Part shown: positions 1,541-24,289 of the stretch, in pieces
Layout of the letters: the number at the start of each line of letters is the position of its first letter
Numbering within the stretch: the first letter of the stretch is position 1
NCBI RefSeq assembly: GCF_000146505.1
Contig: NC_017448.1
Coordinates: forward strand, 390,001-422,000
DNA: 32,000 nucleotides
Origin: Fibrobacter succinogenes subsp. succinogenes S85
Lineage (GTDB): Bacteria > Fibrobacterota > Fibrobacteria > Fibrobacterales > Fibrobacteraceae
Reading direction: 5' to 3'
Position numbers and translations under genes: made by a program
The notes under the pieces: generated by a model
What the model was told of the DNA's origin: nothing
The model's database searches: none
The model's input: the letters and a program-made list of their open reading frames with translations, nothing else

Positions 1541-2962
1541 ATGAGAAAAATTTCGCAAGGCAATTGGATGTGGCCTATCACAATCGCATTGTCACTCGGC
1601 ATAGCAGGTTGCAACCTGTTCCACCCGACTGGCAGCCGCGACGCCGACAGCAGCGATGCTGCAGCACTGACTCACGACGGATACCTTGAGTATCAAAAGT
1701 CAAACTACGATGTCGCCCGCAATTTTTTCAGCAAGGCCCTGCGTGCGGACTCCGGATATTCTGAAGCATGGGTTGGCCTTTGCAAGACGGTCCTAAAAGC
1801 GCAAGAAGGAATCGACGCCTTTGAGCTTGCCTCCTACGCACAAAATCAGCAAGACGAAAACGGCAAGGTGACCAACGGGTTCCTCGTCATGAGCGACGAA
1901 AAAGCGGACTCCATCTCGCGTGGTATTGATTCAGTCATGTTCTATCTGAACCAGTTTGTCGCCCGCGACACAACCGACAGGACCGACAAGAAAGTTCGAT
2001 TCAGCAACATCGCCGATAGCTACACCATACTCCAACTCACCAAGGCGGCTCTCCGCGTCAGGGCCGTAAACACGCAGCTTTCAAGCGTTGTCTCAGCCAA
2101 CAGCTCCGGCATGATGATGGACCTCAACGCACTGAACGACCTCGGCGATAGTCTCAAGCCGTTTCTCAATGACATGGCCGCAGCAGCCGAAGCCATCAAG
2201 GTTGCACCAGAAGCCGCGGCCGAAATCATCAAGGCCTACCTGCCCGACTCCACCCGCCAGGATTTTGAAGATGACGATTACGCCGAAATCTCGGTCGGAC
2301 TTGCCAATACAGTCATCCAAATGAACGACAGAGCGCAAACAGTTCCCGAAGACCGTGAAAGCGTATTCTTCAACTTCGGAAACGGCCGCGACGATGACGG
2401 CGACGGATGCGTCGACGAAGAAGCGCTTGACAATTACGACAACGACGGAGACGGCGAAATCGATGAAGATGTCCGCGACAGCCGCTCGATTGTCCTCGTA
2501 AAGAAGAGACCGACAAACTACGAAGAGCTCAAGGCTCTCGGCTATGATCCGACGACTTACGACCTGACAAAAGCCCAGCTTGACTCCCTCAGTGTCCTTG
2601 AAAAGTACAACATCATTGATATCGACATGGACGGGAAGACGACTCAGGATGACCTGGATGAATGGGAATTCATTTACCGCGACCCCAACGAGCGCGATGA
2701 AAAGAAGAACCACAGGCTCAAGTTCACAACAACCATCAATTTCATGTACGCTGAAGGCGGCATGTTCCCGGAAAATCAAGACGAAAAGACTGTTGAAAAA
2801 ATTAATTCTCTCATTGAAAAGAAAGAACTTATCCGTAAGGACAACGACATCAACAACATCAAGTACGACTGGAGAAAGCGTGCAGAGATGGTTGGTGGAT
2901 GCTGGACAAATTACGATGACGAAAAGTTCCTCAAGTGGTTTGAAGGGAGAATCGTAAAATGA
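1541..2962 (+). CDS. Lipoprotein with a TPR-like N-terminal region and acidic Ca-binding-like loops (thrombospondin-type-3 / EF-hand-like)
   Basis: The signal peptide ends in the lipobox LSLGIAGC. The segment YDVARNFFSKALRADSGYSEAWVGL is TPR-like. Acidic loops are DDDGDGCVDEE, DNDGDGEIDED and DIDMDGKTTQDDLDE (DxDxDG pattern). The stop overlaps the next start (ATGA at 2959-2962). Confidence 0.6.
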   Translation: MRKISQGNWMWPITIALSLGIAGCNLFHPTGSRDADSSDAAALTHDGYLEYQKSNYDVARNFFSKALRADSGYSEAWVGLCKTVLKAQEGIDAFELASYAQNQQDENGKVTNGFLVMSDEKADSISRGIDSVMFYLNQFVARDTTDRTDKKVRFSNIADSYTILQLTKAALRVRAVNTQLSSVVSANSSGMMMDLNALNDLGDSLKPFLNDMAAAAEAIKVAPEAAAEIIKAYLPDSTRQDFEDDDYAEISVGLANTVIQMNDRAQTVPEDRESVFFNFGNGRDDDGDGCVDEEALDNYDNDGDGEIDEDVRDSRSIVLVKKRPTNYEELKALGYDPTTYDLTKAQLDSLSVLEKYNIIDIDMDGKTTQDDLDEWEFIYRDPNERDEKKNHRLKFTTTINFMYAEGGMFPENQDEKTVEKINSLIEKKELIRKDNDINNIKYDWRKRAEMVGGCWTNYDDEKFLKWFEGRIVK

Positions 2963-4230
2963 ATAAACTAACAATACTTGCCATTCTCGCCTGCGCTTTT
3001 GGAATTGTCTCTGCTAAGTCACCAATGCATTTTTCGCTCCGTGCAGAATCCATGGGTGGCGCCCACGTCGCCGTCGTTGACGACAAGGAAGCAATCCATT
3101 ACAACTATGCAGGTTTGAGCCAAATTAACAGACTCGGCAACTTTGAAAAACGCCCTGAACAAGGTTACTACCCACGTAACTGGATTGGCGACATGCGACT
3201 CACCTTCGGCGGTGCAGGCGACATTTTCAAGTTCCTCACGACTTACAGCGATGTGAAGGACGTTCAGGATTTGTTCCGTGCGGCACAGAACGATGCCGAC
3301 CGCATAACCGCAGATCATCCGATGCCTTCCAGCAGAACCGGCGCCATTCTTGATTCACTCATCGCAAACCCCAAATACGTCAAGACCATCAACTCTTACG
3401 ACCACAAGACCATGGAAGCAAGAGTCAAGTTCGATGCGGAATTGGCGTTCCACAACTTCGGTGCAGCATTCTGGATGAACGGAAGCGTCGCCCCTTACGT
3501 TGATGCAGGAATCATCCTCCCCTACGTCGTTGTAGATACATTCATCATCGATGCTGTCGCGCAGATGGGTGGCGCCTACGAAATCATCCCGAATCAACTT
3601 TCTGTCGGTTTGGGCGGTAAAATCGTCAAGCGCCACAAGACCAACATGGTGACCGTTGGTCTTGCCAATTACAGTTCAATTGTAGACACCCTTAAAGATC
3701 AAGCGGGCGATGCGACCGACAACTTCTTTGATTCCAAGACATTCTCGTTTGGCCTTGACTTGGGCGTACTTTACCAGTTCAACCGCGAAATTCGCTTTGG
3801 CGCATCGCTCAGAGACATTTACTTCAAGCAGCTCGCTGGCGAAACGCTGATTCCGAATTTTACCATCGGTGCAAACTACAGCCCGAAATTCATGAACAGC
3901 AATACAGGCTTTGGACGCAAATTTAACGTGGCCGTAGACTTTGCCGACATGTTTAACGCCGATAGGAATTACAAGTTCTTTACGCACTTGAACTTCGGTT
4001 TTGAACTGGAGCAGACGCTCGCCGCAATTCCGGGACTTAACAACGAAATTCGCTTTATCACCCTCAGGCTTGCAGGCGGTTTCAGAGGCGGTTACCCCTC
4101 TGCAGGTGTCGGGCTTGAGATATTGCGTTTCTTCTCGGTTGAAGCGGCCACCTGGGGCGAAGAACGCGGCTACTACACCGGTCAGGACGAGAACCGAATT
4201 TACATGGTTCAAGCAAGCATCGGCTTTTAG
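2959..4230 (+). CDS. Outer-membrane beta-barrel protein; family uncertain, possibly FadL/PorV-like
   Basis: Signal peptide MNKLTILAILACAFGIVSA. Alternating hydrophobic beta-strand patterns run throughout. An aromatic C-terminal residue (...VQASIGF) is typical of OMPs. The N-terminal SMGGAHVAV..NYAGLS motif resembles OM channel families. The gene is translationally coupled to the upstream lipoprotein. Confidence 0.6.
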   Translation: MNKLTILAILACAFGIVSAKSPMHFSLRAESMGGAHVAVVDDKEAIHYNYAGLSQINRLGNFEKRPEQGYYPRNWIGDMRLTFGGAGDIFKFLTTYSDVKDVQDLFRAAQNDADRITADHPMPSSRTGAILDSLIANPKYVKTINSYDHKTMEARVKFDAELAFHNFGAAFWMNGSVAPYVDAGIILPYVVVDTFIIDAVAQMGGAYEIIPNQLSVGLGGKIVKRHKTNMVTVGLANYSSIVDTLKDQAGDATDNFFDSKTFSFGLDLGVLYQFNREIRFGASLRDIYFKQLAGETLIPNFTIGANYSPKFMNSNTGFGRKFNVAVDFADMFNADRNYKFFTHLNFGFELEQTLAAIPGLNNEIRFITLRLAGGFRGGYPSAGVGLEILRFFSVEAATWGEERGYYTGQDENRIYMVQASIGF

Positions 4231-4297: not shown

Positions 4298-5725
4298 TTA
4301 TTTCTTAACTTTCACGACTCTCGCTTGCGGGTTCTGCTTGCCAAGCAAGTCATAAGTGCGGGAGGTGCGCAAGCTGCGGGACTGCACCGGGCGATTGCGC
4401 TTGAAAATGGAAATCGTACCATCGTCGGTCTTAAAGTTTTCAATGTGCGTAATGCCGTTATTCACGTAATCGTCAAGGCCGTACGCATGACGCATGATGT
4501 TCAAAACGTCCTTGTCAAACACGGAACCGTCCGGTTCTGTCTGGCGACGGATAATAGTCATGTTGTTTTCGCCTTCGTGGCCCGTATCCCAGGCGATAGG
4601 CACCACTTTGTTTTCCTTCGCGAGTTTCATCACGGCATCGTAATAAGCGAGGCGGCCCTTGCGGTGTTTCGCATAATTGTCGCCGGTCAACACCCCCACG
4701 CGGTCATTCGCACCGAACTCGCCGATAATCACAGGCACGCCCTTATTGACAAAATTCTTTTTCATCTTGCCGAACTGGTCCTGAATTTGTGCGCTGGTGC
4801 ACTTGTCGCCCATAGCTCCCGCCCAGGCGTTGTAGCCGCAGTTATGCACAATATCCGCACCAGTCGCGAGGTCGTCGCCCCAGTAGTACTGCGGATAGAC
4901 CTGAGCGCCCCAATCAACAACGTCATTCAACAGCGTGTAGGTATAAGGGTCATAGAAATGCACTTCGACCATCAGGCGGTCCGCAATCACGTCTTTCGGG
5001 AGCTTGCTCACAGGCATCACTTCGCAACTGCGGTCCACACTTGTCGATGGCCCCTGAATCACGAGCGTACGGCTGGCGTTGTTGCCACCCGTTGCACGCA
5101 CGGCGTCCACAAACGACTGGTGGTACGTCATCAGGATTTCGGTTTCGTGCTTGTAATTATCGTCCGTTGTCGCGGGTTCGTTAGCGCTTGCAAAAAGCAA
5201 ATTTTCGTTATAGTTCTTGAAGCGGTTTGCAATCTGCGTCCAGAAATCCTTCTGGCGGGCGTTCACCTTGTCTTTTTCCTTGTCGTTTAGGTTGCCTTCG
5301 AGCCAGCCATTATCCCAATGGATGTTCAAAATCGTCACAAGGCCAGCGCGCATGCAGTAATCCACGACCGTCTGCACGGAATCCATCCAGCTAGAAGCAA
5401 TTTCGTTCGGGCCACCGCCCGGAACAATGTCTGCCCTGCTAGAATCGCGCGACAAAGCATTCGAATGGCTGTACCACGCGCACGGAATACGAATCGTGCT
5501 GAAGCCCGCCGCCTTGACCGAATCAATGTACGCCTCAGTCGGGAACTTGTTGCCCCACCACGTCGGATTCTGAGGAACTTCCATCGTGTTCCCGATATTT
5601 ATGCCAAAGCCCATCTTGGCAAACATTTCGTTTGCCGTCGGCAAATCTGCCGCGAAGGAATTTGACGCCAATGCAAAAGAGAACGCGCTGCAAAGAGCAG
5701 CAACGCGAATGTGCTGTTTCAACAT
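4298..5725 (-). CDS. Secreted glycoside hydrolase family 5 (endoglucanase/cellulase-type) with a short basic C-terminal tail
   Basis: GH5 hallmarks are present: FSTIRIPCAW, FASANEP (NEP acid/base) and VIIGEFG (GEF nucleophile). The likely true start is MLKQHIRVAALCSAFSFALASNSFA (signal peptide) at 5725 rather than the ORF-track start at 5818. The tail RSLRTSRTYDLLGKQNPQARVVKVKK is strongly basic. Confidence 0.85.
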   Translation of the reverse strand: MLKQHIRVAALCSAFSFALASNSFAADLPTANEMFAKMGFGINIGNTMEVPQNPTWWGNKFPTEAYIDSVKAAGFSTIRIPCAWYSHSNALSRDSSRADIVPGGGPNEIASSWMDSVQTVVDYCMRAGLVTILNIHWDNGWLEGNLNDKEKDKVNARQKDFWTQIANRFKNYNENLLFASANEPATTDDNYKHETEILMTYHQSFVDAVRATGGNNASRTLVIQGPSTSVDRSCEVMPVSKLPKDVIADRLMVEVHFYDPYTYTLLNDVVDWGAQVYPQYYWGDDLATGADIVHNCGYNAWAGAMGDKCTSAQIQDQFGKMKKNFVNKGVPVIIGEFGANDRVGVLTGDNYAKHRKGRLAYYDAVMKLAKENKVVPIAWDTGHEGENNMTIIRRQTEPDGSVFDKDVLNIMRHAYGLDDYVNNGITHIENFKTDDGTISIFKRNRPVQSRSLRTSRTYDLLGKQNPQARVVKVKK

Positions 5726-5844
5726 AGTTAATCCTTTGGTTCTATGCCATTCGCGTTTTATCCCCAAACAACGAAAGACCATAACACCGAATTTAAATAT
5801 ACGCTCAAAGCACGGCAAAAGCCCAAGTTCAGCCGTTAAAAGTG

Positions 5845-5943: not shown

Positions 5944-7161
5944 TTATTCTTTCACATCGTTTTCGAAAAGAGCATAGCCTCGGGCAGCTTTCAACATATT
6001 CGTGGTAGTATCAACTTGAATACCAATAAAACCGGTATAAAGCCTCAAAGGAATCTTTTCACCTGAATAATTCCATTCAATCCGTATCGAGGTCACTCCT
6101 CTAGGAACATTATTAACATCCAGTTGTTCATTCCAATCTGGAGAATGCCTTTTATAAGCATCAATACGTTCGTTTAAATAATTACTCTCGTTTATATCTA
6201 ATCCAGTGTACGGGAAAAATCTAGAAATCCAACCATTAAAGGTCACATTGCCACAAAATTCTGGAATGTAACGCTTGTATATTCCTCTCCAATGATCCAT
6301 ATTTATTTTGCCTTCAAAGACATTGATAAATTCATCAAGAATAGGATTAAGCCCAACAGCCCACCAATCCATATCCAGACGCGATGCAAGTCTGTTAAAA
6401 GAATCCTTGAGCAAAATCCAGTCTTCTTTTTTACCATTTATCTTGATTTTGGGGATTCCGCAAAGCGAAGAAACCACATACTCGTAATATTCAGCAGCCA
6501 CAGCCATGACCATCGCACTAGAAATGTTGTAATCCACCGGGCTTGTCGTCGAGAACTTTGTTTTAAGCGGCAACCCAGTCTCTTCGGGCAACTTGGACTG
6601 CAAGACTTCAAATAAATTCGCAAGCGTCCAGAACCATTCATGATGCGTTGATTCGGTGGTCAGCGAATTATCCTCAAAAGTAACTACAGTATCCGTTCCC
6701 GGAGTAACAAACTTATCTTTCAAAGCTTCGCGATTGCTTTTGACATGGTAGCGGAAACCATCCAAAATCATAAGCCAAATATCATCTGGGTTTATTTCCA
6801 GAGAATAATGATTGGCAAACGCAAGTTCAACGACATCAAAGAATGATGATATATCAGACGTTCCACTGATAAAAGGGCTTATCGAATCAGAATACGCATA
6901 AAAAATCTTGCGTCCTCTTTCTTGTTTATTTATAGAAAAATGTTCTGCAAAACCACCCTTTTCAACAGGAACAAGTTTCTCTTTAAAAGGTTTGCTTTGA
7001 ACGCTAGAATCAACGATCATGACATACGCACACGTATCGCGGACAAAGCCTTCGAAACTTTGCTTCGCGTTCGAAGACAATTTGATGACTTTTTCGTCTC
7101 CACAAGAAGAAAGTACGTATGCGGCTAGGATAAAGAAAAAGAATTTGTAAAGGATATGCAT
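5944..7161 (-). CDS. Lipoprotein, DUF4419-like module only (P3 of the paralog array)
   Basis: Lipobox ...AAYVLSSC. The segments HYSLEINPDDIWLMILDGFRYHVKSNREALKDKFV and CGIPKIKINGKKEDWILLKDSFNRL match my recollection of the DUF4419 family signatures (..RPDDVWLAIL.QF.FY....AE.LR..FV, GIP.vtL.G...DW..il.rl). It is clearly paralogous to 9587-10897 and to the N-half of 10904-13321. It ends right after the P module (KAARGYALFENDVKE). Confidence 0.75.
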   Translation of the reverse strand: MHILYKFFFFILAAYVLSSCGDEKVIKLSSNAKQSFEGFVRDTCAYVMIVDSSVQSKPFKEKLVPVEKGGFAEHFSINKQERGRKIFYAYSDSISPFISGTSDISSFFDVVELAFANHYSLEINPDDIWLMILDGFRYHVKSNREALKDKFVTPGTDTVVTFEDNSLTTESTHHEWFWTLANLFEVLQSKLPEETGLPLKTKFSTTSPVDYNISSAMVMAVAAEYYEYVVSSLCGIPKIKINGKKEDWILLKDSFNRLASRLDMDWWAVGLNPILDEFINVFEGKINMDHWRGIYKRYIPEFCGNVTFNGWISRFFPYTGLDINESNYLNERIDAYKRHSPDWNEQLDVNNVPRGVTSIRIEWNYSGEKIPLRLYTGFIGIQVDTTTNMLKAARGYALFENDVKE

Positions 7162-7179
7162 ACTAACAATATAAAAAAT

Positions 7180-8457
7180 TTATTCTTCCACAAAGCAGGC
7201 CGGGATTTTGAGCTGGACGACTTGATTTAAAGAAAGGTCTTCTTTGACGTACATAGCATGGTATCGATCAAACAACGTGTATATTGTCGGAAATTTAATC
7301 GGCTTTTTAGTGAATAGCGGCTCTATTTTTATACATTCCAAATAATTAATTCCGCTCGTAGCAAAGTCCTTCGTAAATCGGATTTCATCACAATGTTCTT
7401 TGATAATGCCAGAATAACCGGCAATCTCAACAGAATCTTTTTCACTTCCCTCTCCCTTACATTCCAATCGGAAATATTCTCTAGAAAACGAAAGATGGAC
7501 CTTTTCTGACTTGACAATTTCTTGTGCAGCGACATAACTCCAAATATTCCGTGATTGTAATTCCGGAGGCAAATTATCAGAGAAATACATACAAGGAAGC
7601 GGATCCATAAGACGAGTTTGCACCGTTGGCGGCATCCAGGCATAATATAAAATGGACTTGACTTCTTCCAAAAAATCCTTATACTCGGGATGTTCCGTAT
7701 CCATCGAAACATTCGTAACGCGACCACTATCCCCAAACGTAATCGTAGCATCAACAGAAAGATTAAAGCCCTCTTTATAATATCGTTTGAGCGCTCGTTC
7801 AAGCCGCCAACCACAAGGTTTCTTTACACTTTGAATAAGGCCCGTTTCAAATTCCCTTGGCGGCATCGTATCACCAAGATTTTTCCCTTCTTTAAGTTCA
7901 AAAGCGTCAATGTATATATCCACTTTCAACGCTGGTAGATTCGGACGTGTTTTGAATTCCGCAGTTTTACCCTCTGTAGAAATTTTCCGTTCCTTGAAAA
8001 ACGCATAAATAGGATCCAGTTTTTTTATTCTGCCACAACCTTGCAACGAATATACAACGCCATCAAACACCGTATCCCCAGAATAAGGATTTTCAAAGTA
8101 GAATAAATAATCAATCAGTTTCCCTTTTTGAAATAAGCTAACAGACAAATTCGCTTCATCTTCAGAAACATATCTGAGGCTTCTATCATATTCAACATAT
8201 TCTTCATCAAGTACCGAAGCCTTGGCAAATTTTTTGATTTCCTTCAAGCTATTCGTTGTGTAGGCCAAGCCCTGCGCGTTATAAACAACCATAGAATCTG
8301 CAAGCGCTAAAGATTCTTGCATAGGTCGCGGTTTTCCAGGAATAAAATCTACAGAAACATTATCACGTTCCTGTTCGCAAGAGAGCAGAACGCATGCGGC
8401 AAGGATGAGGAAAAGAAATTTAGAAACGGAAATCTTCATTGTATTTTTCATCTTCAT
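7180..8457 (-). CDS. Lipoprotein, Q module only (Q3): a P-type signal peptide joined directly to the linker and Q domain
   Basis: Lipobox LILAACVLLSC followed by EQERD, as in P2. The next segment, NVSVDFIPGKPRPMQESLALADSMVVYN, aligns to the P-Q linker of the fused paralog (NVADTMTYIPGKPHRMLEMLAISDSMNIYD). The C-terminus is ...VVQLKIPACFVEE. Start is ambiguous: 8457, 8451 or 8439 (MKISVSKF...). Confidence 0.7.
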   Translation of the reverse strand: MKMKNTMKISVSKFLFLILAACVLLSCEQERDNVSVDFIPGKPRPMQESLALADSMVVYNAQGLAYTTNSLKEIKKFAKASVLDEEYVEYDRSLRYVSEDEANLSVSLFQKGKLIDYLFYFENPYSGDTVFDGVVYSLQGCGRIKKLDPIYAFFKERKISTEGKTAEFKTRPNLPALKVDIYIDAFELKEGKNLGDTMPPREFETGLIQSVKKPCGWRLERALKRYYKEGFNLSVDATITFGDSGRVTNVSMDTEHPEYKDFLEEVKSILYYAWMPPTVQTRLMDPLPCMYFSDNLPPELQSRNIWSYVAAQEIVKSEKVHLSFSREYFRLECKGEGSEKDSVEIAGYSGIIKEHCDEIRFTKDFATSGINYLECIKIEPLFTKKPIKFPTIYTLFDRYHAMYVKEDLSLNQVVQLKIPACFVEE

Positions 8458-9583
8458 TGATTTTTTCTTCTACAAAGCACGGTGGGATTTTGAGTTTTAC
8501 GACTTGCGAAATCGGGAGGCCGCCATCATACACTGCGTCATGTTTGTCAAAACGAACGTTCGTATGCCTTGGCTCGATTTCTTCAGGATGATCCCCGTAC
8601 TTCACTTTTTTATTGTATTCTATACATTCATAACGGACAACGCCGCCTGTTGCAAGGTCTTTCGAGAACGTAATCTCGTTACAAAGATCTTTCTTTGCAT
8701 CCGACGCTCCGACAATATCGACAGAATCTTTAGCATTTCGCCCATTCTCCTTACAGACCATGCGGTAATCCCTTGTAAAAGTAAGATGAATCCAGACATA
8801 GTCGATAATATCTTGAGCGGTTTCTTCATTGCCGACATCCGTACGAACTTTCGGCGGCATCCATCCGTAATACAAAATGTCACGAAGCTCTTTATCAAAA
8901 GCCTTATTTTTCCATCCGTAATACAAAATATCACGAAGTTCTTTATCAAAAGCCTTATTTTTACTCTTACGAGACGCAGTACTCGCGGACGGTAAAAATA
9001 CAGAACCATCATCCTTATACGACAATGAGGCAAGACCAGATAAATTAAAAGTTTCCTTATAATAGCGATACAACAACCTTTTGAGTCGCCAACCCATAGA
9101 ATTATTCATTGCTCGGACAATTCCTGTTTTAAAAGCACGCATTTCTAGACCATCTCTAAGAGATTTTCCACTCTTAAGGAAAACCGAATCCACAAAAATT
9201 TTGACATTCAATTTCGGGAGAGATTTTTCATTTTCAAATTCATGGACAGTTCCACTTATAGGAATATCGCGTTCCTTAAAAAAATTCTTGATTGCAGCAG
9301 GCTTTTTCCATCGCCCAACGCCCTGCAACGAAAGCATAGCGCCATCATAATCCGAAGTTAAAAAATCGAGTACGCGCTCCTTGAATGTTTCCTTTCGAGG
9401 TTTCGCATAATAAAGCAAATGATCCACTAGCTTGCCATCTCGGTACAAATTGATAGATAGATTGGGTTCACCAACCCCGACCATTTCCCTACGCCACGAT
9501 TCGGCTTCAGGATATTCTTCATCAAAGGAAGAAAATTCAGCAAATTCCTCTATTTCGTCAGCGTTATTAGTTGCATAAACCAA
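8420..9583 (-). pseudogene. Q2 module without its own ATG or signal peptide. It is separated from P2 by a single in-frame TAA, so it is a disrupted fusion, or a fusion that needs readthrough.
   Basis: Same reading frame as 9587-10897. The minus strand reads ...TCC ATG AAT ATT TAT GGG GAA TAA GGC TTG GTT TAT GCA..., which aligns codon-for-codon with the intact fusion (SMNIYDKNGLSFAT). The listed start is TTG, and the first ATG is 34 codons in. It also carries a 51-bp in-frame tandem duplication and a 14-codon C-terminal extension past the family terminus CFVEE. Confidence 0.6.
8861..8962. repeat. 51-bp perfect-phase tandem duplication (2 copies) inside Q2
   Basis: Copy A is 8861-8911, ccatccgtaatacaaaatgtcacgaagctctttatcaaaagccttattttt. 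Copy B is 8912-8962 and is identical except g>a and c>t (49/51). It encodes KNKAFDKELRDILYYGW twice, and both differences are synonymous (GAC/GAT, GAG/GAA). Confidence 0.95.
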
Positions 9584-9586
9584 GCC

Positions 9587-10897
9587 TTATTCCCCATAAA
9601 TATTCATGGAATCCGAAAATGCCAAAGATTCCACCAAGCGATATGCTTTTCCAGGAATATACTTTGTATTCCGAGCAACATTTTTTAACTTTTGCATTCC
9701 ATAAGAGACAAGAGCGTAACCTCTAGAAGCCTTCAACATATTATTTGTGGTATCCACCTGCATACCGATAAAACCGGTATAAAGTTTCAATGGAATTATC
9801 TCCTGAAAGAATTCCCATCGGATATCTATAAAAGTAATCCCCCTAGGAACTTGTTTAAAATCTAATTTTTTATTCCAATCATTGCGTTTGATATATTTTT
9901 CCGTATCAGAATACAAATCTTTTGTATAAGGAAAGAATCTTGAAATCCAGCCACTAAAATCAGGAGTACCACAACCTTCGGGTTCGTAATACTTATAAAT
10001 ATTTTTCCAATGTTTTAGATTTATTTTGCCATCATAAATATTGATAAACTCATCTAAAATAGGATTAAGTCCATCCGCCCACCATTTCATATCCAACTGT
10101 GAAGCTAGTCTGTTAAAGGAATCCTTGAGTAAAGTCCAGTCCTCTTTTGTACCATTCACTTTTATTTTCGGAATTCCACAAAGCGTTGTAACCCTATACG
10201 AATAATATTCCGATGCCACAGCCATCGTCATCGTACGAGAAATATTTGCATCCACAGGGCTTGTCGTCGAAAATTTCGTTCGCAACGGAGCGCCCGTTTC
10301 TAGAGGCAACTTAGCCTGCAATGAATCAAACAGTTCCGAGAGCGTATAGAACCATTCCTTGTGCGTAGATTCTAGAGTCAACGAATTATCCATAACCGAG
10401 ACCACAGTATCAGTACCCGGAGCTACAAAGCGGTCCTTGAGGGCTTTGCGATTGTTCTTGACATGAAGACGAAAGCCGTCCAAAATCATAAGCCAGATAT
10501 CATCTGGATTTATTTCCATAGCATAATGCTTGGCGTATGCAAGGGCGACAAGATTAATGAAAGAAGGTTCTTCAGAAGAACCTTTAACAAACGGATTCAC
10601 AGAATCGGAATACGCATAAAAAATTTTTTGCCCGTTCGTCCCCTTTTTCTCCGCTTCGTTTGCAAAATACTCTACGAAGCCGCCTCTTTTTACATGGATG
10701 ATTTTTTCATTGAATACGCTATCGCGAACAGTCGTATCAATAACCAGCGCATAAGCACTTGTATCGCGAGCAAAGCCTTCAAAACTCTCGGTCGGTTTCG
10801 AAGAAATCTCAATCACCGGCTCATCACGTTTCTGTTCGCAAGAGAGCAGAGCGTATGCGGCAAGGAAGAGGAAAAGGAATTTGTAAAGGCTATGCAT
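9587..10897 (-). CDS. Lipoprotein, DUF4419-like module plus linker (P2), ending at a premature TAA relative to the fused paralog
   Basis: Lipobox AAYALLSC. The P module is highly similar to P1 and P3 (AMEINPDDIWLMILDGFRLHVKNNRKALKDRFV, CGIPKIKVNGTKEDWTLLKDSFNRL). It continues into the linker (KYIPGKAYRLVESLAFSDSMNIYGE) before the stop. Only 6 nt separate it from the stop of the upstream gene. Confidence 0.75.
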   Translation of the reverse strand: MHSLYKFLFLFLAAYALLSCEQKRDEPVIEISSKPTESFEGFARDTSAYALVIDTTVRDSVFNEKIIHVKRGGFVEYFANEAEKKGTNGQKIFYAYSDSVNPFVKGSSEEPSFINLVALAYAKHYAMEINPDDIWLMILDGFRLHVKNNRKALKDRFVAPGTDTVVSVMDNSLTLESTHKEWFYTLSELFDSLQAKLPLETGAPLRTKFSTTSPVDANISRTMTMAVASEYYSYRVTTLCGIPKIKVNGTKEDWTLLKDSFNRLASQLDMKWWADGLNPILDEFINIYDGKINLKHWKNIYKYYEPEGCGTPDFSGWISRFFPYTKDLYSDTEKYIKRNDWNKKLDFKQVPRGITFIDIRWEFFQEIIPLKLYTGFIGMQVDTTNNMLKASRGYALVSYGMQKLKNVARNTKYIPGKAYRLVESLAFSDSMNIYGE

Positions 10898-10903
10898 AAT
10901 CTA

Positions 10904-13321
10904 TCATTCTTCCACGAAACAAGCTGGAATTTTAAGCTTTACGACTTGCGATATCGGGAGGTTATAACGAGTATCATATACGTCGTTACGCTTGTTAAAA
11001 TACGCATTTGTATAAGTGGAACGAATTCTTTCACGAGGTTCCCCATACAAAGCGTTGAACCTAGCCATAAGAGAGTCTGCAAGTGTAGAATCTTTAGAGT
11101 TCAACATTTTTTCTCGTTTCTTAGGCACTATTATTTTATTGTATTCTAAACATTCATAGCGGACAACACCGCCTGTTGCAAGGTCTTTAGAGAACTTAAT
11201 TTCACTGCAAAGGCTCTTTTTTGCAGACGGAGCTCCAATGATATCGACTGAATCTTTGGCATCTTGCCCATTCTGCTTGCAAACCATGCGGTATTCCCTT
11301 GTAAACGCAAGATGGATTTTAACGAAATCAACAATTTCTTGTGCGATTTCATCATTGCCGATATCCGTATGAACTTCTGGAGGCATATAACCGTAATGTA
11401 ACACATCCCTCAATTCCTCTTTGAATTCTTTATTGGAATCAGGCTCCAAGGATAAGGATACATGCTCATCTACACGGCCTTTTTCTTTATAGCCCATCGC
11501 TGCTACTGCGGATAAATCAAAATTATCATTATAATAGCGATACAACAATCTCTTGAGGCGCCAGCCCATTGAGTTTTTAAAGGCTTGGATTATCCCTGTT
11601 TTAAATTCACCCATTTCAAGATCTTCTCTAAGAGATTTTCCCTCTTTTAAGACAACCGTATCCACAAGAATATCGATATTCAATTTCGGGAGGGATTGTT
11701 CATTTTCAAATTCCTTAACCACGCCATCAATAGCGACATTTCGTTCCTTAAAGAAGGATTCAATACGTTCCTTGTCATTTATTGCAACCACGCCCTGGAG
11801 GGTAAGAATCCCGCCAGCATTCTCTTCAGGCACAACGAAATATTGCAAGTGATCTAAGAGTTTTCCATCTTTGAACAGGTTGACCGACAAAATCGATTTA
11901 TACTTTTTTTCTATTCTGGACCGTATAGATGGTTCCATATATTCGTCTTTGTAGTTCGAAGCCTTTATAAAATTCTCAATTTCATTGCGGTCATGCGTCG
12001 CAAAAGAGAGGCCGTTTTTGTCATAGATATTCATTGAATCCGAGATGGCCAACATCTCTAGCATACGATGCGGTTTCCCAGGAATATAAGTCATTGTATC
12101 CGCAACATTCTTTATATCGCACCAGCCACATTGCGAACGCAAAGCGTACCCTCTAGCAGCCTTCAGCATTTTCGAAGTCGTATCCACCTGGATTCCGACA
12201 AATCCTGTATAAAGTTTCAAAGGAATTTCTTGACCCAAATAGTTCCATTTAACATCAACAGACGTAAGAGCATTCGGCAGGGTTTCGAAATCGACATCAT
12301 GTTCCCAATCTGTACGTTTTACAAACTCCATTTTATCAGAATATCCCATCAAGTACGGATAGAACTTGGAGAACCAGCCATTGAATTTAGGATTTCCACA
12401 TCCTTTGGGTTCGTATAGCTTATATATATTTTTCCAAAAAGCGATAGAACTATTTCCATCGAAAGCTTTAACAAATTCATCAAGAATCGGATTTAACTGT
12501 TGTAACCACCATTCCATATCAAGGCGAGTTGCAAGCTTATTAAAAGAATCCTTCAACAAGCTCCAATCCTCTTTTGTGCCATTAATCCTTATTTGGGGAA
12601 TACCGCAGAAAGTATAGGCAAAAAATGTATAATATTCAGACGCTATGGCCATGACCATAGAACGGGAAATATTGTAATCGACCGGGCTTGTGGTCGAAAA
12701 TTTCGTCCGCAACGGAGCACCCGTTTCTGGCGGCAACTTTTCTTGAAGATTATCGAAAAAATCTGCAATGACGCCAAACCATTCTTCGTGCGTAGATTCC
12801 ATAGTCAGGTGATTCGCAAAGACCTTAATGTCCGTATCGACATCAGGGCCAACAAAACGGTCTTTCAAAGAATCACTATTGCTCTTTACATGCAAGCGGA
12901 AACCATCTAAAATCAACAGCCAGATATCGTCTGGACTTATTTCCATGGCATAGTGTCTAGCATAGGCCAAAGCGACCAAATCTATAAAAGCCGATTTTTG
13001 GGAACGTCCCTTTACAAATGGACTTATAGAATCCGAATAGGCATAGAAGATTTTAGTTTCAGGGGAACCCTTTTGGTGAAAACTTGAAAAATACTCCGCA
13101 AAGCCCCCTTTCTCTACAGGGACAGTTTCTTCGCGGAAAGCGCTATCGTGAACGGACGTATCGACGACCATCGCGTAAGCACTCGTATCACGGACAAAGC
13201 CGTAAATCTTGTGTGAAGAATCCGGCGAAACGTCAATAGGCTTATTCACTTGCTTGCGTTCGCAAGAGAGCAGAACGCTTGTAGCAAGGAGGAGGTAAAA
13301 GAATTTGTAAAAGCTATGCAT
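10904..13321 (-). CDS. Fused two-module lipoprotein (P1-Q1): DUF4419-like N-half plus Q C-half, 805 aa
   Basis: Lipobox TSVLLSC. The N-half is paralogous to P2 and P3. The linker is NVADTMTYIPGKPHRMLEMLAISDSMNIYDKNGLSF. The C-half is paralogous to Q2 and Q3 and ends KIPACFVEE. It is a single uninterrupted ORF. Confidence 0.8.
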   Translation of the reverse strand: MHSFYKFFYLLLATSVLLSCERKQVNKPIDVSPDSSHKIYGFVRDTSAYAMVVDTSVHDSAFREETVPVEKGGFAEYFSSFHQKGSPETKIFYAYSDSISPFVKGRSQKSAFIDLVALAYARHYAMEISPDDIWLLILDGFRLHVKSNSDSLKDRFVGPDVDTDIKVFANHLTMESTHEEWFGVIADFFDNLQEKLPPETGAPLRTKFSTTSPVDYNISRSMVMAIASEYYTFFAYTFCGIPQIRINGTKEDWSLLKDSFNKLATRLDMEWWLQQLNPILDEFVKAFDGNSSIAFWKNIYKLYEPKGCGNPKFNGWFSKFYPYLMGYSDKMEFVKRTDWEHDVDFETLPNALTSVDVKWNYLGQEIPLKLYTGFVGIQVDTTSKMLKAARGYALRSQCGWCDIKNVADTMTYIPGKPHRMLEMLAISDSMNIYDKNGLSFATHDRNEIENFIKASNYKDEYMEPSIRSRIEKKYKSILSVNLFKDGKLLDHLQYFVVPEENAGGILTLQGVVAINDKERIESFFKERNVAIDGVVKEFENEQSLPKLNIDILVDTVVLKEGKSLREDLEMGEFKTGIIQAFKNSMGWRLKRLLYRYYNDNFDLSAVAAMGYKEKGRVDEHVSLSLEPDSNKEFKEELRDVLHYGYMPPEVHTDIGNDEIAQEIVDFVKIHLAFTREYRMVCKQNGQDAKDSVDIIGAPSAKKSLCSEIKFSKDLATGGVVRYECLEYNKIIVPKKREKMLNSKDSTLADSLMARFNALYGEPRERIRSTYTNAYFNKRNDVYDTRYNLPISQVVKLKIPACFVEE

Positions 13322-13436
13322 ACTAACAATATAAAAACATAGCTTTGCAGAGATTTTATAATAAAAAGTAAAATAATGTATATACGAGAAATTATGGATC
13401 CTTCGCGTTGCTCAGGATGACGGGACTGCAACGGGA

Positions 13437-13928
13437 TTACTTACCGCTCATAATGGCGGCGAGGTCGGCACCACTCAAATTCGTTTTTTCGCTTAAGGCG
13501 GCGACGATTGCGGTGAGCGACTTTTGGCAAGCCATCATGAGATTGTAAACTTGTTCGACAACGTTTGTTTCGGCAAGCTGGTAGTAATAGCAAGCAGCCT
13601 GGAAACTCTGGTAATCAGGGTCACTCCTGTAAAGCTCCATCGGGAGTTCTTTCATAACAGTGTCGAGATCGCAAGCGAAATTTTTACGGATCAAAAAGTC
13701 CGACATGTGGCCCGCAATAGCGATGTGAGCGGCACCATCGAGCGAGCTCCCGGGCATACGCGTGGCGCTCGGTTTTTCCTTGGAATTGTTGATTCTGACG
13801 TAATCAATCTGGCGCTTGAACAGGAATGCGATTAAAGCGTGGCCCGCCTCGTGGCGGCAGAGTTTTTCATATTCTTGTTCACCGAAAAATTCAATTAAGT
13901 TTTCGCGAGTTAATGTTTGTTCTGACAT
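13437..13928 (-). CDS. Stand-alone FtsH-type (peptidase M41-like) HEAGH metalloprotease domain protein, 163 aa, with no AAA+ or transmembrane part
   Basis: LCRHEAGHALIAFLF matches the FtsH zinc site (..YHEAGHA(L/I)..). The downstream IAIAGHMSDFLI and the C-terminal helical tail (...LTAIVAALSEKTNLSGADLAAIM) parallel the layout of the FtsH protease domain. Its start overlaps the upstream hydrolase gene by 19 nt. Confidence 0.65.
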   Translation of the reverse strand: MSEQTLTRENLIEFFGEQEYEKLCRHEAGHALIAFLFKRQIDYVRINNSKEKPSATRMPGSSLDGAAHIAIAGHMSDFLIRKNFACDLDTVMKELPMELYRSDPDYQSFQAACYYYQLAETNVVEQVYNLMMACQKSLTAIVAALSEKTNLSGADLAAIMSGK

Positions 13929-14518
13929 TTTTCAATCCACCTATCTAAAAAATCCATCCGTTCGTCGGTATGGAACCAATGTTCGCCGCCTTGCATAATC
14001 GTGAGCGATGCGCCCACTTTTTGTGCAAATTCGCGCATCGTTTCAAGGTCGGTCAAATTGTCATTGGAGCCGTACAAAATATGCGTCGGGATATTCCATT
14101 TGATGGGATTTTCTCGCACGTAGCAAAGGTATTTCCAAGAAAGCGTCTTGCCAAAGTTCGTCGCAATTTCACCTTTTTCGCGGAGTTCATCTTCGGAGAC
14201 ATTCGCCCAAAGCATCATATTGCAAATGAGCTTTTCCAAGTTCACCATCGGCGAAATGAAGAGCGCCTGCTTGATGCGTTTTTCGCCCAAAGCGTTCATC
14301 GAGAAGAACGCGCCAATGCTATTTGCAATAAGCATGACTTCATCGTAATTTGCGGCAACCGCGTCAAAGTAAGCCGAAAATTCCTGCTTGGCATCCCACG
14401 GGGTTTCAGCCTTGTAATCAAAACCGATGACATCAAAATCCGGGAAAAGGGTCTCGTAATGATTGGCCTCGTCGGCATAGCCGCCTTTCCCATGAATGTA
14501 AATAACAAGCTTTTTCAT
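13910..14518 (-). CDS. Small alpha/beta-fold hydrolase (about 200 aa)
   Basis: VIYIHGKGG (oxyanion region), nucleophile elbow IANSIGA (GxSxG-type variant), acid candidate in YGSNDNL, and His in GGEHWFH. The likely start is MKKLVIY at 14518; the ORF track begins at 14551. Confidence 0.7.
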   Translation of the reverse strand: MKKLVIYIHGKGGYADEANHYETLFPDFDVIGFDYKAETPWDAKQEFSAYFDAVAANYDEVMLIANSIGAFFSMNALGEKRIKQALFISPMVNLEKLICNMMLWANVSEDELREKGEIATNFGKTLSWKYLCYVRENPIKWNIPTHILYGSNDNLTDLETMREFAQKVGASLTIMQGGEHWFHTDERMDFLDRWIEKCQNKH

Positions 14519-14582
14519 TTCTTTTTCGCTTTTTCCGCCTAGAAAATACAAAAATCTACACCAATTGACTAGAGATTGGGAT

Positions 14583-15491
14583 TCACTTTACCAAAGCAAG
14601 CAACTGTTCCTTGGTCACAAGGTTCAGTACCGAAAACGCAGTCATTTTATAGCCTAAATCCATAATTGAAGCCCCAACATGATATACAGTTTCGTCAACG
14701 ATGATAAATCTGTCGTGAACTTCACGCATTGTCCGCAATTCAACAGTTGGAAACTGGCGATTTATACGATTAACTTCATCCTTCATCGCATGCGTAATTC
14801 GAGCAGAGTAAATGACGGCATTAACACCAGCAACACGTTTTGCAACAAGCGAAAGCGATGTATCATTAGCAAACGGATCTATGATTATGATTTCTTTTTT
14901 CGCGGAGCGAACTAATTGCACAGCAAATTCATAACCGCTCCAACGAGCATTAGCTGGTATAACGCCTTCACTAGGAGGAATATTTGCTTTGACAAAGAAG
15001 TCTACCTGCTTTTCAAGGTTAACGACACGAGAATCTAGATTCTCAATTTTATTTTCTTGAGAAATCAATCGTTGATTAACACTATATCCCTTAAGCAAAT
15101 GCTCCTTAAGAACTAGGTTCGCCCATCGACGGAATTCAATTCCTTTTTGAGTGTTTACACGAAATCCAACAGATATAATGAGATCCAAATTATAAAGCGC
15201 TACGGAACGTTTTACAACTCTATTTCCTTCCTTTTGAACTAGTTCCAAAATGGAACTAGTTGACATTTCATCCAATTCAAGAGATTCATAGATATTTTTC
15301 ACATGTTTGGTGATTGCTTGGCGATGAACATCAAACAACTCCGCCATCTGCGCTTGTGTCAACCATACGGTTTCGTTTTCTACGCGAAATTCAATGTGAA
15401 ATTCACCGCCCTCCGGCTGATAAACAATAATTTCGTCTTTCTCACCGTTATTATTTTTCTTGTCAATTAACGAAAAATTGTTCTTATTCAT
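14583..15491 (-). CDS. RhuM-like DNA-binding N-terminal domain fused through a coiled coil to a degenerate HKD/PLD-like C-terminal domain
   Basis: The N-half, IIVYQPEGGEFHIEFRVENETVWLTQAQMAELF...YNLDLIISVGFRVNTQKGIEFRRWANLVLKEHLLKGY, is the RhuM family pattern as I recall it. The C-half has IIIIDPF... and HDRFIIVDETVYHVGAS, which is H-x-R-x4-D-x6-G-A-S against the canonical PLD motif HxKx4Dx6GSxN. Confidence 0.75.
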   Translation of the reverse strand: MNKNNFSLIDKKNNNGEKDEIIVYQPEGGEFHIEFRVENETVWLTQAQMAELFDVHRQAITKHVKNIYESLELDEMSTSSILELVQKEGNRVVKRSVALYNLDLIISVGFRVNTQKGIEFRRWANLVLKEHLLKGYSVNQRLISQENKIENLDSRVVNLEKQVDFFVKANIPPSEGVIPANARWSGYEFAVQLVRSAKKEIIIIDPFANDTSLSLVAKRVAGVNAVIYSARITHAMKDEVNRINRQFPTVELRTMREVHDRFIIVDETVYHVGASIMDLGYKMTAFSVLNLVTKEQLLALVK

Positions 15492-22825: not shown

Positions 22826-23263
22826 TTAGACCATTGCAGCGCTAAAGGAGGCGTTGCAGATAAGCGTTTCGCCCTGCCAGATTTCGCCAGTGTACTTGTA
22901 AATGCCATGGCGAGCCATCACGAGCGTAGCCTTGAGCGTCAAGTCCTGCGGCGGAATCACCGGAGCGCGGAAACGGCAGTTTTCGACACCCATGAATGCC
23001 GGGCGCTTGCCTTCGACATCAGCCTTCTTCGCGATCATCGTCAAGAGCGTTGCGGCCTGAGCCATGGATTCGATCTGAATCACGCCCGGGAGCACCGGAT
23101 TGTTCGGGAAATGACCGTCAAAGAACTTTTCCTTGCCCGTCACGTGCCAAACAGCAACGATAGACGGCTGGTCACCTTCGGTGATTTCCTGAATTTCGTC
23201 CACGAAAGCAAACGGAGCCTTCTGAGGGAGGAGGGCATGTACTTGTTCTTCATTGTAAAGCAT
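22826..23263 (-). CDS. fabZ: 3-hydroxyacyl-ACP dehydratase
   Basis: LLPQKAPFAFVDEI..., FFDGHFPNNPVLPGVIQIESMAQAA and GEIWQGETLICNASF: canonical FabZ hotdog motifs, 145 aa. Confidence 0.93.
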   Translation of the reverse strand: MLYNEEQVHALLPQKAPFAFVDEIQEITEGDQPSIVAVWHVTGKEKFFDGHFPNNPVLPGVIQIESMAQAATLLTMIAKKADVEGKRPAFMGVENCRFRAPVIPPQDLTLKATLVMARHGIYKYTGEIWQGETLICNASFSAAMV

Positions 23264-24143
23264 AGGGCAACACCTTTTCTAAGATTGTTCTGTGGCTCAA
23301 GTGACCACCGTTGATGATTTCCAGACGAACTTTCGGGAGTGCGGGCTTTGCAAAGCAAAGGTCTCCCAACAGGTCGAGGATTTTATGACGAGCGGGTTCA
23401 TCGGCAACTCTAAACACGGGGGCTACAGCCTCCGGAGAATTGTCAAGCAAGAGCCCACAGGATTCATCCACCCCGCCAAGCAAACCTGCCTTGCGGGCTT
23501 CGTCAAATTCGTTTTTTAAAATGAAAGTTCTCGCCGCAAAGACATTGTACAAGTCTTCTGCGGAGTAAATAGAAACATTCGCCGCCGACTTAAAGACGCG
23601 ACCGTTTTCGTTTCGTTCCAGGATGTATTCCACTTCGAACGCTTCGCTCGGCGTGATTTTCACGGAACCGTAAGGCAAGTCCCACAAAGCATGCACCGGA
23701 GCATCGTAAAAAGCGAGTTCTTCAGGCGCACCCACATTTCTGCGAAATTCGCTAAAGAACGGAAGCGCACTACCGTCCATCAACGGGAGTTCAGCAACAC
23801 ACCCCTTGTCACTTTCTTCGTTGCAGGTGACATCGACCACAAAGCGGCGAGAAGGCCACATCAAGAATACTGGTGCAAGGTGTTCCGGGGACGCAAGCGT
23901 CAAAGCATGAACGCCTTCGCCCGATTCGTAAATTGCGGTACGGGCCACGCTGAACTTCAAATCCGTGAAGCACTTTGCGCAATCGGTACTGTAAAAAGAA
24001 CGACCGCCCACGCGCCATTCAACACGAGGCTCCAGTTGCGGATTATACTCCTGGACTTCAATTTTTACGTTTGCCTTGCCATAAGACAAAGACGCAGAAC
24101 TAAATTCCCACTCACGCGGGCTTTTACGAGAATCTTTTTTCAT
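23250..24143 (-). CDS. lpxC: UDP-3-O-acyl-N-acetylglucosamine deacetylase, with a divergent N-terminus
   Basis: SPEHL (E78/H79 equivalents), ELPLMDGSALPF, AARTF and RHKILDLLGDL (H238, K239, D242 and D246 equivalents), and NGGHLSH (H265 equivalent). It overlaps fabZ by 14 nt. The N-terminal GxGLHTG motif is replaced by SLSYGK. Confidence 0.85.
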   Translation of the reverse strand: MKKDSRKSPREWEFSSASLSYGKANVKIEVQEYNPQLEPRVEWRVGGRSFYSTDCAKCFTDLKFSVARTAIYESGEGVHALTLASPEHLAPVFLMWPSRRFVVDVTCNEESDKGCVAELPLMDGSALPFFSEFRRNVGAPEELAFYDAPVHALWDLPYGSVKITPSEAFEVEYILERNENGRVFKSAANVSIYSAEDLYNVFAARTFILKNEFDEARKAGLLGGVDESCGLLLDNSPEAVAPVFRVADEPARHKILDLLGDLCFAKPALPKVRLEIINGGHLSHRTILEKVLPYALQ

Positions 24144-24189
24144 TTAGATAACGGGAATTTATAAAAAAAATGCACACTTGAAAGTTAAG

Positions 24190-24266
24190 AACTTAGAACT
24201 TAGAGCTTAGAACTTAGATTTTAAAATGGAAGCCTAAGTTCTAAGAGCGGAGCGGGCTAAGTTCTA
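24190..24266. repeat. Heptamer tandem repeat (AACTTAG x4) with inverted copies, forming a nested extragenic palindrome in the lpxD-lpxC spacer
   Basis: AACTTAG is at 24190-96, 24197-203 and 24211-17, and the variant AGCTTAG is at 24204-10. The inverted unit CTAAGTT is at 24234-40 and 24257-63, and CTAAGAG is at 24241-47. CTTAGAACTTAG (24206-17) pairs perfectly with CTAAGTTCTAAG (24234-45), giving a 12-bp stem with a 16-nt loop. An outer 10-bp pairing is possible between 24194-203 and 24257-66. Confidence 0.9.
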
Positions 24267-24274
24267 CCAACTGT

Positions 24275-24289
24275 GGCGGCACAGCCGCC
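24275..24289. other. GC hairpin abutting the lpxD stop codon
   Basis: GGCGGC (24275-80), ACA, GCCGCC (24284-89). The lpxD TAG is the complement of 24289-24291. On the minus strand no U-run follows, so it is not a canonical terminator. Confidence 0.5.

Follow-up and report, generated by a model that had tools for sequence, protein, structure and literature searches.

The stretch analysed here (the window) comprises 32,000 nucleotides of Fibrobacter succinogenes subsp. succinogenes S85 (contig NC_017448.1, positions 390,001–422,000, forward strand). Between window positions 5944 and 13321, five consecutive open reading frames (ORFs) on the minus strand form a tandem array. Currently annotated as 'DUF4419 domain-containing protein' or 'putative lipoprotein', their products are built from two modules: P, a DUF4419 domain, and Q, a module without a recognisable family. 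The array encodes a predicted exported, lipoprotein-type family in which DUF4419 is joined to a three-part tail; selection maintains the family, whose units differ in number and architecture at this one locus. A first-pass annotation made from the sequence alone had described the ORFs, their spacing and their module layout, and all of these were reproduced.

In transcription order, the first gene, P1Q1 (10904–13321, −; FSU_0352/Fisuc_3086), encodes an intact fusion of 805 amino acids (aa): a signal peptide with the lipobox LLSC (13262–13321), P (approximately 12089–13261) and Q (10907–12088). P2 (9587–10897, −; FSU_0351/Fisuc_3085) encodes 436 aa, comprising a signal peptide, DUF4419 and the first ~25 aa of Q. 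Q2 (8420–9583, −; FSU_0350/Fisuc_3084) is the 387-aa remainder of the disrupted P2Q2 gene and has no signal peptide of its own. In SP+Q3 (7180–8457, −; FSU_0349/Fisuc_3083; 425 aa), a lipoprotein signal peptide is joined straight to Q. Lastly, P3 (5944–7161, −; FSU_0348/Fisuc_3082; 405 aa) consists of a signal peptide and DUF4419, and its C-terminus, RGYAL-FENDVKE, lies just beyond the P/Q boundary. Locus tags were confirmed through the tables of two papers (PMC6851124 and PMC4668043), and products were matched by exact look-up in both public S85 assemblies.

The gaps between successive units are 6, 3, −38 and 18 nt. Because these gaps are so small, a single transcript is suggested, which would start from the region upstream of P1Q1 (13322–13436, −), where a promoter-like site lies at 13382–13353. 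A 16-nt conserved leader, TTTTTATATTGTTAGT, immediately precedes the ATG of P1Q1, and an identical leader precedes P3; the leader and start of P1Q1 (13248–13337) and of P3 (7088–7177) are 74% identical (repeat family D8). The G+C (GC) content of the array is 0.39–0.41, compared with 0.52–0.56 in its flanks (a glycoside hydrolase family 5 gene, GH5, and purL).

Alignment of the products separates P, which runs from the signal peptide to approximately '...RGYAL', from Q, which runs from a [YF]IPGK motif to P(A/P)CFVEE. The first-pass annotation had Q end in CFVEE; this holds for Q1 and Q3, but Q2 has lost that stop and extends for a further 18 aa. Amino-acid identity among the paralogs is 58–64% for P and 44–59% for Q, synonymous sites are saturated, and the ratio of nonsynonymous to synonymous substitution rates (dN/dS) is ~0.15–0.25. 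Saturation together with this low ratio indicates that the paralogs are old, selected duplicates, and not a recent or chance repeat.

As the first-pass annotation had proposed, the products start with lipoprotein-type signal peptides. A hydrophobic stretch followed by a lipobox of the LLSC type opens each of the four ORFs that start a unit (Q2 being the exception), and the motif, ...LLSC or VLSSC, falls at residues 17–20 (24–27 in Q3). The call was made by pattern, as a basic and hydrophobic signal peptide ending in [LVI][ASTVIL][GAS]C, which these products carry. A lipobox-like motif recurs in 167 of the 192 homologs first retrieved, and a few relatives (P0178 and P0188) have a plain signal peptide instead.

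Origin of the four architectures

The fused, split, P-deleted and Q-less forms distinguished in the first-pass annotation are all real. P2 and Q2 share one frame and are separated by a single TAA (9587–9589). That much had been proposed; however, since Q starts at [YF]IPGK, the stop lies ~25 residues inside Q and does not mark the module boundary, and the P2 ORF already encodes the beginning of Q. In the closest relative, P0127 (96.6% identity), the fusion is intact at 824 aa and lysine occupies the position of the S85 stop, indicating an AAA-to-TAA change. Other P2Q2 orthologs, of 807–820 aa, are intact too. The stop is not a sequencing error, because it is present in both S85 assemblies and in dozens of resequencing contigs (35–42 contigs). 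Judged by these orthologs, the nonsense split alone among the four architectures is specific to S85.

Q2 carries two further peculiarities. The first is a perfect-frame tandem duplication of 51 bp (8860–8961, −; copies 96% identical; repeat family D10), which doubles KNKAFDKELRDILYYGW within the TonB-like domain described below; it is also found in intact orthologs of 820–824 aa from other strains and is thus tolerated. The second is the 18-aa tail (KINEDEKYNEDFRF..., 8420–8479, −), which overlaps the start of Q3 by 38 nt. Its conservation in P2Q2 orthologs suggests that the Q2/Q3 overlap has been kept, possibly for translational coupling. As intact relatives have both the duplication and the tail, neither is a sign of decay.

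The signal-peptide DNA of SP+Q3 is 89% identical to that of P2, a higher identity than in the rest of the gene (repeat family D7). Such a pattern is what an ancient loss of P from a fusion would leave, and SP+Q3 is conserved throughout the genus. Orthologs of P3 are 87–95% identical in loci L006–L011. By ortholog comparison, the P-deleted and Q-less forms are stable, conserved groups and not recent accidents.

The P and Q modules

All three P modules match the Pfam family DUF4419 (PF14388), with E-values of 1.2e-58, 2.8e-57 and 1.2e-55 and scores of 199.4, 194.9 and 189.6 bits for P1, P2 and P3, respectively, far above the gathering score of 25 bits. The alignment covers nearly the full model (positions 2–302 of 303), so the family assignment made in the first-pass annotation stands. 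Invariant residues of P are polar and aromatic (PDDIW, H..V..N, FSTT, CGIP, DW, LDEF and IYK), and these motifs are common to homologs from Armatimonas and Bacteroidota. Such conservation suggests a catalytic or ligand-binding site in P. The predicted fold of P agrees with models of other DUF4419 proteins, matching giant-virus and insect-virus models in BFVD with E-values down to 5e-18.

DUF4419 is widely distributed over bacteria, fungi, amoebae and other eukaryotes, giant viruses, insect viruses and jumbo phages, and it is also found on a Rhizobium megaplasmid. Fold or sequence matches include an entomopoxvirus, LbFV, several giant viruses and jumbo phages (phage records KX853510.1 and LR756501.1); some of the viral and phage matches carry unreliable names, such as 'inhibitor of apoptosis' and 'eEF-3 like'. 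The overall spread is unusually broad and patchy.

Elsewhere the domain stands alone in proteins of 365–555 aa. These lack a signal peptide in Armatimonas, and would be cytosolic there; in Bacteroidales, Flavobacteriales and Anaerolineae they mostly have ordinary signal peptides and sometimes occur as tandem pairs (for example in L034 and L041). In contrast, Fibrobacter P is a lipoprotein fused to Q, and among the DUF4419 proteins examined Q never occurs alongside P outside Fibrobacter. Solo DUF4419 genes sit amid housekeeping genes, and no conserved neighbourhood pattern was found in those inspected (Armatimonas, a metagenome contig and another Fibrobacter). Five loci of Flavobacteriales type (L030, L032, L034, L037 and L038) encode secreted DUF4419 proteins of 500–555 aa with a conserved C-terminal extension of ~130 aa that has no family match. 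This extension was considered as a TonB-like domain and rejected: a profile search of the PDB did not return TonB, and profile–profile comparison with the corresponding segment of Q gave P = 0.1.

Q matched no family in Pfam, NCBIfam or PADLOC, and scans of it whole, as three segments and, for two alignments (A1 and A4), member by member gave no consistent match, in agreement with the first-pass annotation, which had recognised no family. A Q profile searched with HMMER against 1.84 billion representative proteins yielded 19 matches. Of these, three represent the full-length Fibrobacter-type protein and most others are fragments of that family; the remainder are one weak match to a 279-aa lipoprotein and two long repeat proteins. 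The repeat proteins were judged to be probable repeat-inflated artefacts, in which one short profile stretch is matched 6–12 times. On these searches, Q is essentially confined to Fibrobacter.

Three parts can be distinguished in Q: an N-terminal alpha/beta subdomain, a domain resembling the TonB C-terminal domain, and a C-terminal subdomain (Qb) with four conserved cysteines in the motifs RMVCK ... C.EI ... YEC ... P.CFVEE. In Q1, the TonB-like domain spans 11342–11683 (−) and Qb spans 10907–11290 (−); the segments equivalent to the former lie at ~8870–9220 in Q2 and ~7590–7938 in Q3 (−). Fusions of 646–710 aa stop right after '...ISFSKK' and lack the last ~100 residues containing the four cysteines. 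It is the existence of these short fusions without Qb that justifies dividing Q into Qa and Qb.

An AlphaFold2 model of full-length P1Q1, built from 81 aligned sequences, has a mean predicted local distance difference test (pLDDT) score of 76.8, with values of 85–95 in Q and 60–85 in P. In the model, Q comprises an alpha/beta subdomain, a strand-helix-strand-strand-helix-strand unit and a beta-rich C-terminal part. In the structure search recommended in the first-pass annotation, the weak Foldseek matches of the Q-only model repeatedly include TonB and TolA C-terminal domains, with template modelling (TM) scores normalised to the target of 0.44–0.50 and E-values above 0.1, but neither the Q-only nor the full-length model gave a PDB match with E <0.01 for Q.

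This lead was followed up by sequence comparison. Alignment of the Q segment with the Escherichia coli TonB C-terminal domain by hhalign places the beta-hairpin, the helix and a 'W..P' motif in register (P = 0.005). When the segment profile was searched against 177,635 distinct PDB sequences, three of the four matches, at ranks 2–4, were the E. coli TonB C-terminal domain (independent E-value 0.87, per-sequence P ~5e-6), and none of 20000 shuffles of the TonB sequence reached the real score of 12.3 bits. In the model, the middle of Q has the strand and helix order of TonB/TolA C-terminal domains, and the signature ...dGrV..v.v......F..ev...l..w...P is in register with E. coli TonB. A TonB-C/TolA-III-like character of this region is therefore reasonably supported as a resemblance, not as family membership. 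Unlike TonB, however, the domain would lie inside a lipoprotein and would not terminate a proline-rich energy transducer anchored in the inner membrane. No ExbB/ExbD or TonB-dependent receptor occurs near the array among the ORFs of the window or in 28 Fibrobacter loci.

The family across Fibrobacter

A search with P1Q1 retrieved 88 clusters of 646–824 aa, all with DUF4419, at 42–98% identity and all from Fibrobacter where named. The P–Q fusion is, by this count of clusters, the prevalent form in the genus. The corresponding search with Q3 retrieved 105 clusters at 64–94% identity, nearly all of them stand-alone signal peptide–Q proteins of ~420 aa, and again all the named ones are from Fibrobacter. 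For the survey of loci, one genome per species was scanned with the P alignment, and loci were annotated with purpose-built hidden Markov models for P, Qa, Qb and the neighbours.

At least 16 syntenic loci carry P–Q fusions. P and Q are thus linked well beyond S85, and the linkage is specific to the genus. The first-pass annotation had suggested that P and Q act together at the cell envelope; the fusions and the synteny speak for coupling within Fibrobacter, but there is no general co-occurrence of the modules and Q was not found outside the genus.

In the F. succinogenes clade, the gene order is purL, then a RhuM-type gene, another PQ gene or other genes, an alpha/beta hydrolase, a 163-aa HEAGH protein, zero to three PQ genes, either SP+Q or a Q-less P, GH5 and a FadL-like outer-membrane protein. 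The number of units per locus ranges from one (P3 only, in L007 and L010) to five. The content of paralog lineages is mosaic even among genomes whose PurL proteins are 95–99% identical; SP+Q3 and P3 are mutually exclusive in other genomes, and both are present in S85. Orthologs of Q3, P3 and each PQ lineage are found in other genomes at 73–97% identity, and a fifth architecture, P–Qa without Qb, also occurs there. The GC content of P/Q genes is low at all loci (0.36–0.41), compared with 0.43–0.51 for the hydrolase and HEAGH genes. These comparisons indicate that the family evolves at a fixed site through duplication, module deletion and decay.

In other Fibrobacter lineages, P–Q genes are found in unrelated contexts away from GH5 (L002, L019, L021 and L023), and in L001 the array is present without GH5. 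When the ORFs of the 28 Fibrobacter loci were clustered, the only recurrent neighbours were the hydrolase, the HEAGH protein, GH5, the FadL-like outer-membrane protein, a lipoprotein and purL, together with flanking metabolic and lipid A (Lpx) biosynthesis genes. No toxin or secretion-associated gene recurs with the array in these loci.

The first-pass annotation had put the array forward as a candidate for an undescribed system. There is no evidence of a multi-component system at the locus: the array is not a multi-gene system but one paralogous gene family. What is new is the Q module, its recurrent fusion to P, the TonB-like domain and the behaviour of the array as a variable locus, DUF4419 itself being already known.

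Expression, proposed role and neighbouring genes

A literature search by the locus tags of the array found no paper mentioning them; the tags appear in the tables of two studies. In the available portion of the envelope proteome of Raut et al. (2019; PMC6851124), P2 (FSU_0351) is identified by two peptides. In the transcriptome of Burnet et al. (2015; PMC4668043), RNA levels on cellulose and glucose are 14 and 22 reads per kilobase per million mapped reads (RPKM) for Q3 (Fisuc_3083), and 24 and 21 RPKM for P2 (Fisuc_3085). In the same data set, GH5 rises from 14 RPKM on glucose to 113 on cellulose (~8-fold), and the upstream hydrolase and HEAGH genes reach 60–68 RPKM on cellulose versus 105–142 on glucose. 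To judge from the RNA of Q3 and P2, the array is transcribed at a low level and tracks neither the adjacent cellulase nor the upstream pair. DUF4419 matches, P–Q linkage in other genomes and expression of at least some copies, the absence of any of which the first-pass annotation had named as counting against its proposal, were all found.

The reading that is tentatively favoured, with a likelihood somewhat short of even, is that the array encodes a Fibrobacter-specific, copy-number-variable family of lipid-anchored envelope proteins, in which a docking tail positions the DUF4419 domain. Once lipidated, each protein would reside in the periplasm or at the cell surface. Q would use its TonB-like domain to dock on another envelope protein through beta-strand pairing, as TonB and TolA C-terminal domains do, and a disulfide-stabilised Qb would add stability or specificity. 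Docking would position P, the working part, and different paralogs might serve different partners or ligands.

A bolder version, which is quite improbable, would make the P–Q proteins a new class of lipid-anchored adaptors that insert their TonB-C-like domain into TonB boxes or similar strands of outer-membrane proteins and so deliver the DUF4419 activity, the repertoire of each strain tuning its partners. If true, DUF4419 would gain its first function, and the TonB-box interface would have a use that does not depend on TonB.

Several observations weigh against the favoured reading of a docking tail that positions DUF4419. As regards Q, its segments do not match Pfam TonB_C (PF03544) even at E-values up to 10, and every database-wide E-value behind the TonB resemblance is near 1. 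No partner for the TonB-like domain was identified, and the window contains no TonB-dependent receptor, purL being the only other ORF of more than 510 aa. L007 and L010 retain only a Q-less P, which means that at least one paralog can do without Q. As regards P, neither Foldseek nor a profile search of the PDB gave a significant match. The case for a catalytic or ligand-binding role derives from conservation, that is, from its many invariant polar and aromatic residues. The literature searched assigns DUF4419 no function, as the first-pass annotation had noted. The residue at position +2 after the lipid-modified cysteine is acidic, which is ambiguous as to localisation in the inner membrane, on the periplasmic face of the outer membrane or at the surface, and pure-culture expression of the array is low.

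An unlikely alternative is that the proteins form a strain-variable surface coat, whose copy number and repertoire vary so as to evade or misdirect phages, grazing protozoa or host antibodies, much as variable lipoprotein families do in other bacteria, the activity of P being secondary. In Bacteroidota, acidic residues right after the lipidated cysteine mark surface-exported lipoproteins, and the acidic residues at this position in the array proteins would suit such a coat. So would the one to five copies and mosaic paralogs among genomes with near-identical PurL, the low GC content and expression, and the conservation of signal peptide (D7) and leader (D8) between paralogs. However, the paralogs are not hypervariable but old, with a dN/dS of 0.15–0.25 that reflects purifying selection, and the sequence of the locus showed no slippery repeat, switching machinery or invertible promoter. 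Moreover, the strong conservation that P shares with cytosolic and viral homologs speaks for a conserved activity, and the TonB-like domain points to a periplasmic partner.

Known tandem lipoprotein families include the variable lipoprotein arrays of spirochaetes and mycoplasmas and the SusE/F-like lipoproteins of Bacteroides. The Fibrobacter array resembles them in its shared leader and signal peptide, low GC content and strain-variable number of units, but it differs in that no variation mechanism is seen, its conserved parts are long globular domains and not repeats, and no partner transporter gene is present. TbpB-type neisserial surface lipoproteins, which are large, lipid-anchored, beta-rich and multi-lobed, are a further point of comparison. 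TbpB chains do appear among the weak Foldseek matches, with probabilities of 0.01–0.02 and TM scores below 0.1, which are not significant, and no TonB-dependent receptor gene adjoins the array.

Very doubtful is the proposal that the array belongs to an immunity or defence island, its products being periplasmic immunity lipoproteins against the envelope-acting toxins of competitors, or parts of another conflict system, that accumulate at a hot spot beside a defence gene. Tandem paralogs and strain-specific repertoires could be so explained, as could a variable, low-GC island that in S85 includes a RhuM-type gene of the PADLOC family PDC-S05. The scatter of DUF4419 over bacteria, eukaryotes, giant viruses and jumbo phages is likewise typical of conflict genes. 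Yet P1Q1, Q3 and P3 have no PADLOC match; no toxin, secretion-system or Rhs/contact-dependent-inhibition-type gene is recurrent near the arrays in the 28 Fibrobacter loci; and at ~800 aa the fusions are far above the typical size of an immunity protein. The RhuM gene occurs in only four loci and is unlinked to array content, and the housekeeping surroundings of solo DUF4419 genes elsewhere also speak against defence.

There is little probability, too, that the array is an island acquired horizontally and now decaying, which does little or nothing in S85 and persists by drift. Its low GC content and low expression, the one unit already broken by a nonsense change and losses that differ between strains and can leave just one P are what decay would produce. 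Against this, long ORFs are intact across many species with dN/dS well below 1, and orthologs of Q3, P3 and the PQ lineages persist elsewhere at 73–97% identity. The confinement of the family to the genus also gives no sign of a recent outside donor.

The first-pass annotation had drawn attention to the position of the array directly upstream of a secreted GH5 cellulase (FSU_0347/Fisuc_3081). The adjacency is real, and in 14 loci GH5 comes next after the array in the same orientation, but it reflects conserved synteny and not co-regulation. Because the RNA responses differ and the GC content of the array (0.39–0.41) differs from that of GH5 (0.52), the array is not part of the GH5 unit. Nor does it qualify as a cellulase operon or polysaccharide utilisation locus, as the window holds no ORF the size of a TonB-dependent receptor for a SusC/SusD-type transporter pair and there is no co-regulation with GH5. 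Least probable of all is that the proteins are fibre-degradation accessory factors working with GH5, for example in substrate binding or enzyme organisation at the envelope: the synteny speaks for it, and the invariant P motifs, rich in Trp, Tyr and acidic residues, could fit carbohydrate recognition, but Q3 and P2 stay at 14–24 RPKM while GH5 RNA rises 8-fold on cellulose, the GC contents differ, P–Q genes lie away from GH5 in four loci and the array lacks GH5 in L001, and DUF4419 is found in non-cellulolytic organisms and viruses.

Two observations concern GH5 itself. In the available portion of the envelope proteome, its protein is 1.55-fold lower on cellulose (Raut et al. 2019; PMC6851124). 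The mechanically called ORF (4298–5818, −) starts with TTG at 5818, and a signal peptide begins at Met32 (MLKQHIRVAALCSAF...), so that the real start is probably near 5725.

Whichever interpretation holds, Fibrobacter is the one place found here in which DUF4419 takes the form of an exported lipoprotein with a second conserved tail fused to it. A TonB/TolA-like docking domain would provide a concrete handle for studies of envelope localisation and for a partner search. The fused, split, P-less, Q-less and Qb-less forms at one site amount to a natural experiment in domain architecture in an important rumen fibre degrader. The locus opens no long-standing question.

Directly upstream of the array lie genes for an alpha/beta hydrolase (213 aa) and for the 163-aa protein with an FtsH-like HEAGH motif (13437–14551, −; 19-nt overlap). 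The pair occupies this position in 11–15 loci, and in six loci it has a P–Q gene on both sides. The HEAGH protein has no Pfam match above threshold, and neither protein has a PDB sequence match. The pair was considered as partners of the array and rejected: the two proteins lack signal peptides, and their genes have near-normal GC content, differ in RNA response and are absent near the P–Q genes of other lineages.

Next comes the RhuM-type gene (14583–15491, −; GC 0.38), whose 302-aa product combines a RhuM N-terminal region with a VPA1262-like C-terminal region and matches the candidate defence family PDC-S05 with E = 3e-117; among syntenic Fibrobacter loci it is present in four only. The flank of purL (FSU_0356/Fisuc_3090) resembles an accessory-gene hot spot; in another genome it is occupied by a radical-SAM/SPASM gene and a 632-aa gene.

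On the far side of GH5, a lipoprotein containing tetratricopeptide repeats (473 aa) and a FadL/TraF-like outer-membrane protein (423 aa) are encoded at 1541–4230 (+) with a 4-nt overlap. All Pfam matches of the latter fall below threshold, and the pair is a conserved flank in 10–12 loci. A DAGK/LpxD/LpxC cluster (23250–26273) lies upstream of purL in S85 and downstream of the array in L001 (19371–22290) and L004 (20831–22421). The difference in position indicates that the chromosome has been rearranged, with a breakpoint where the array ends.

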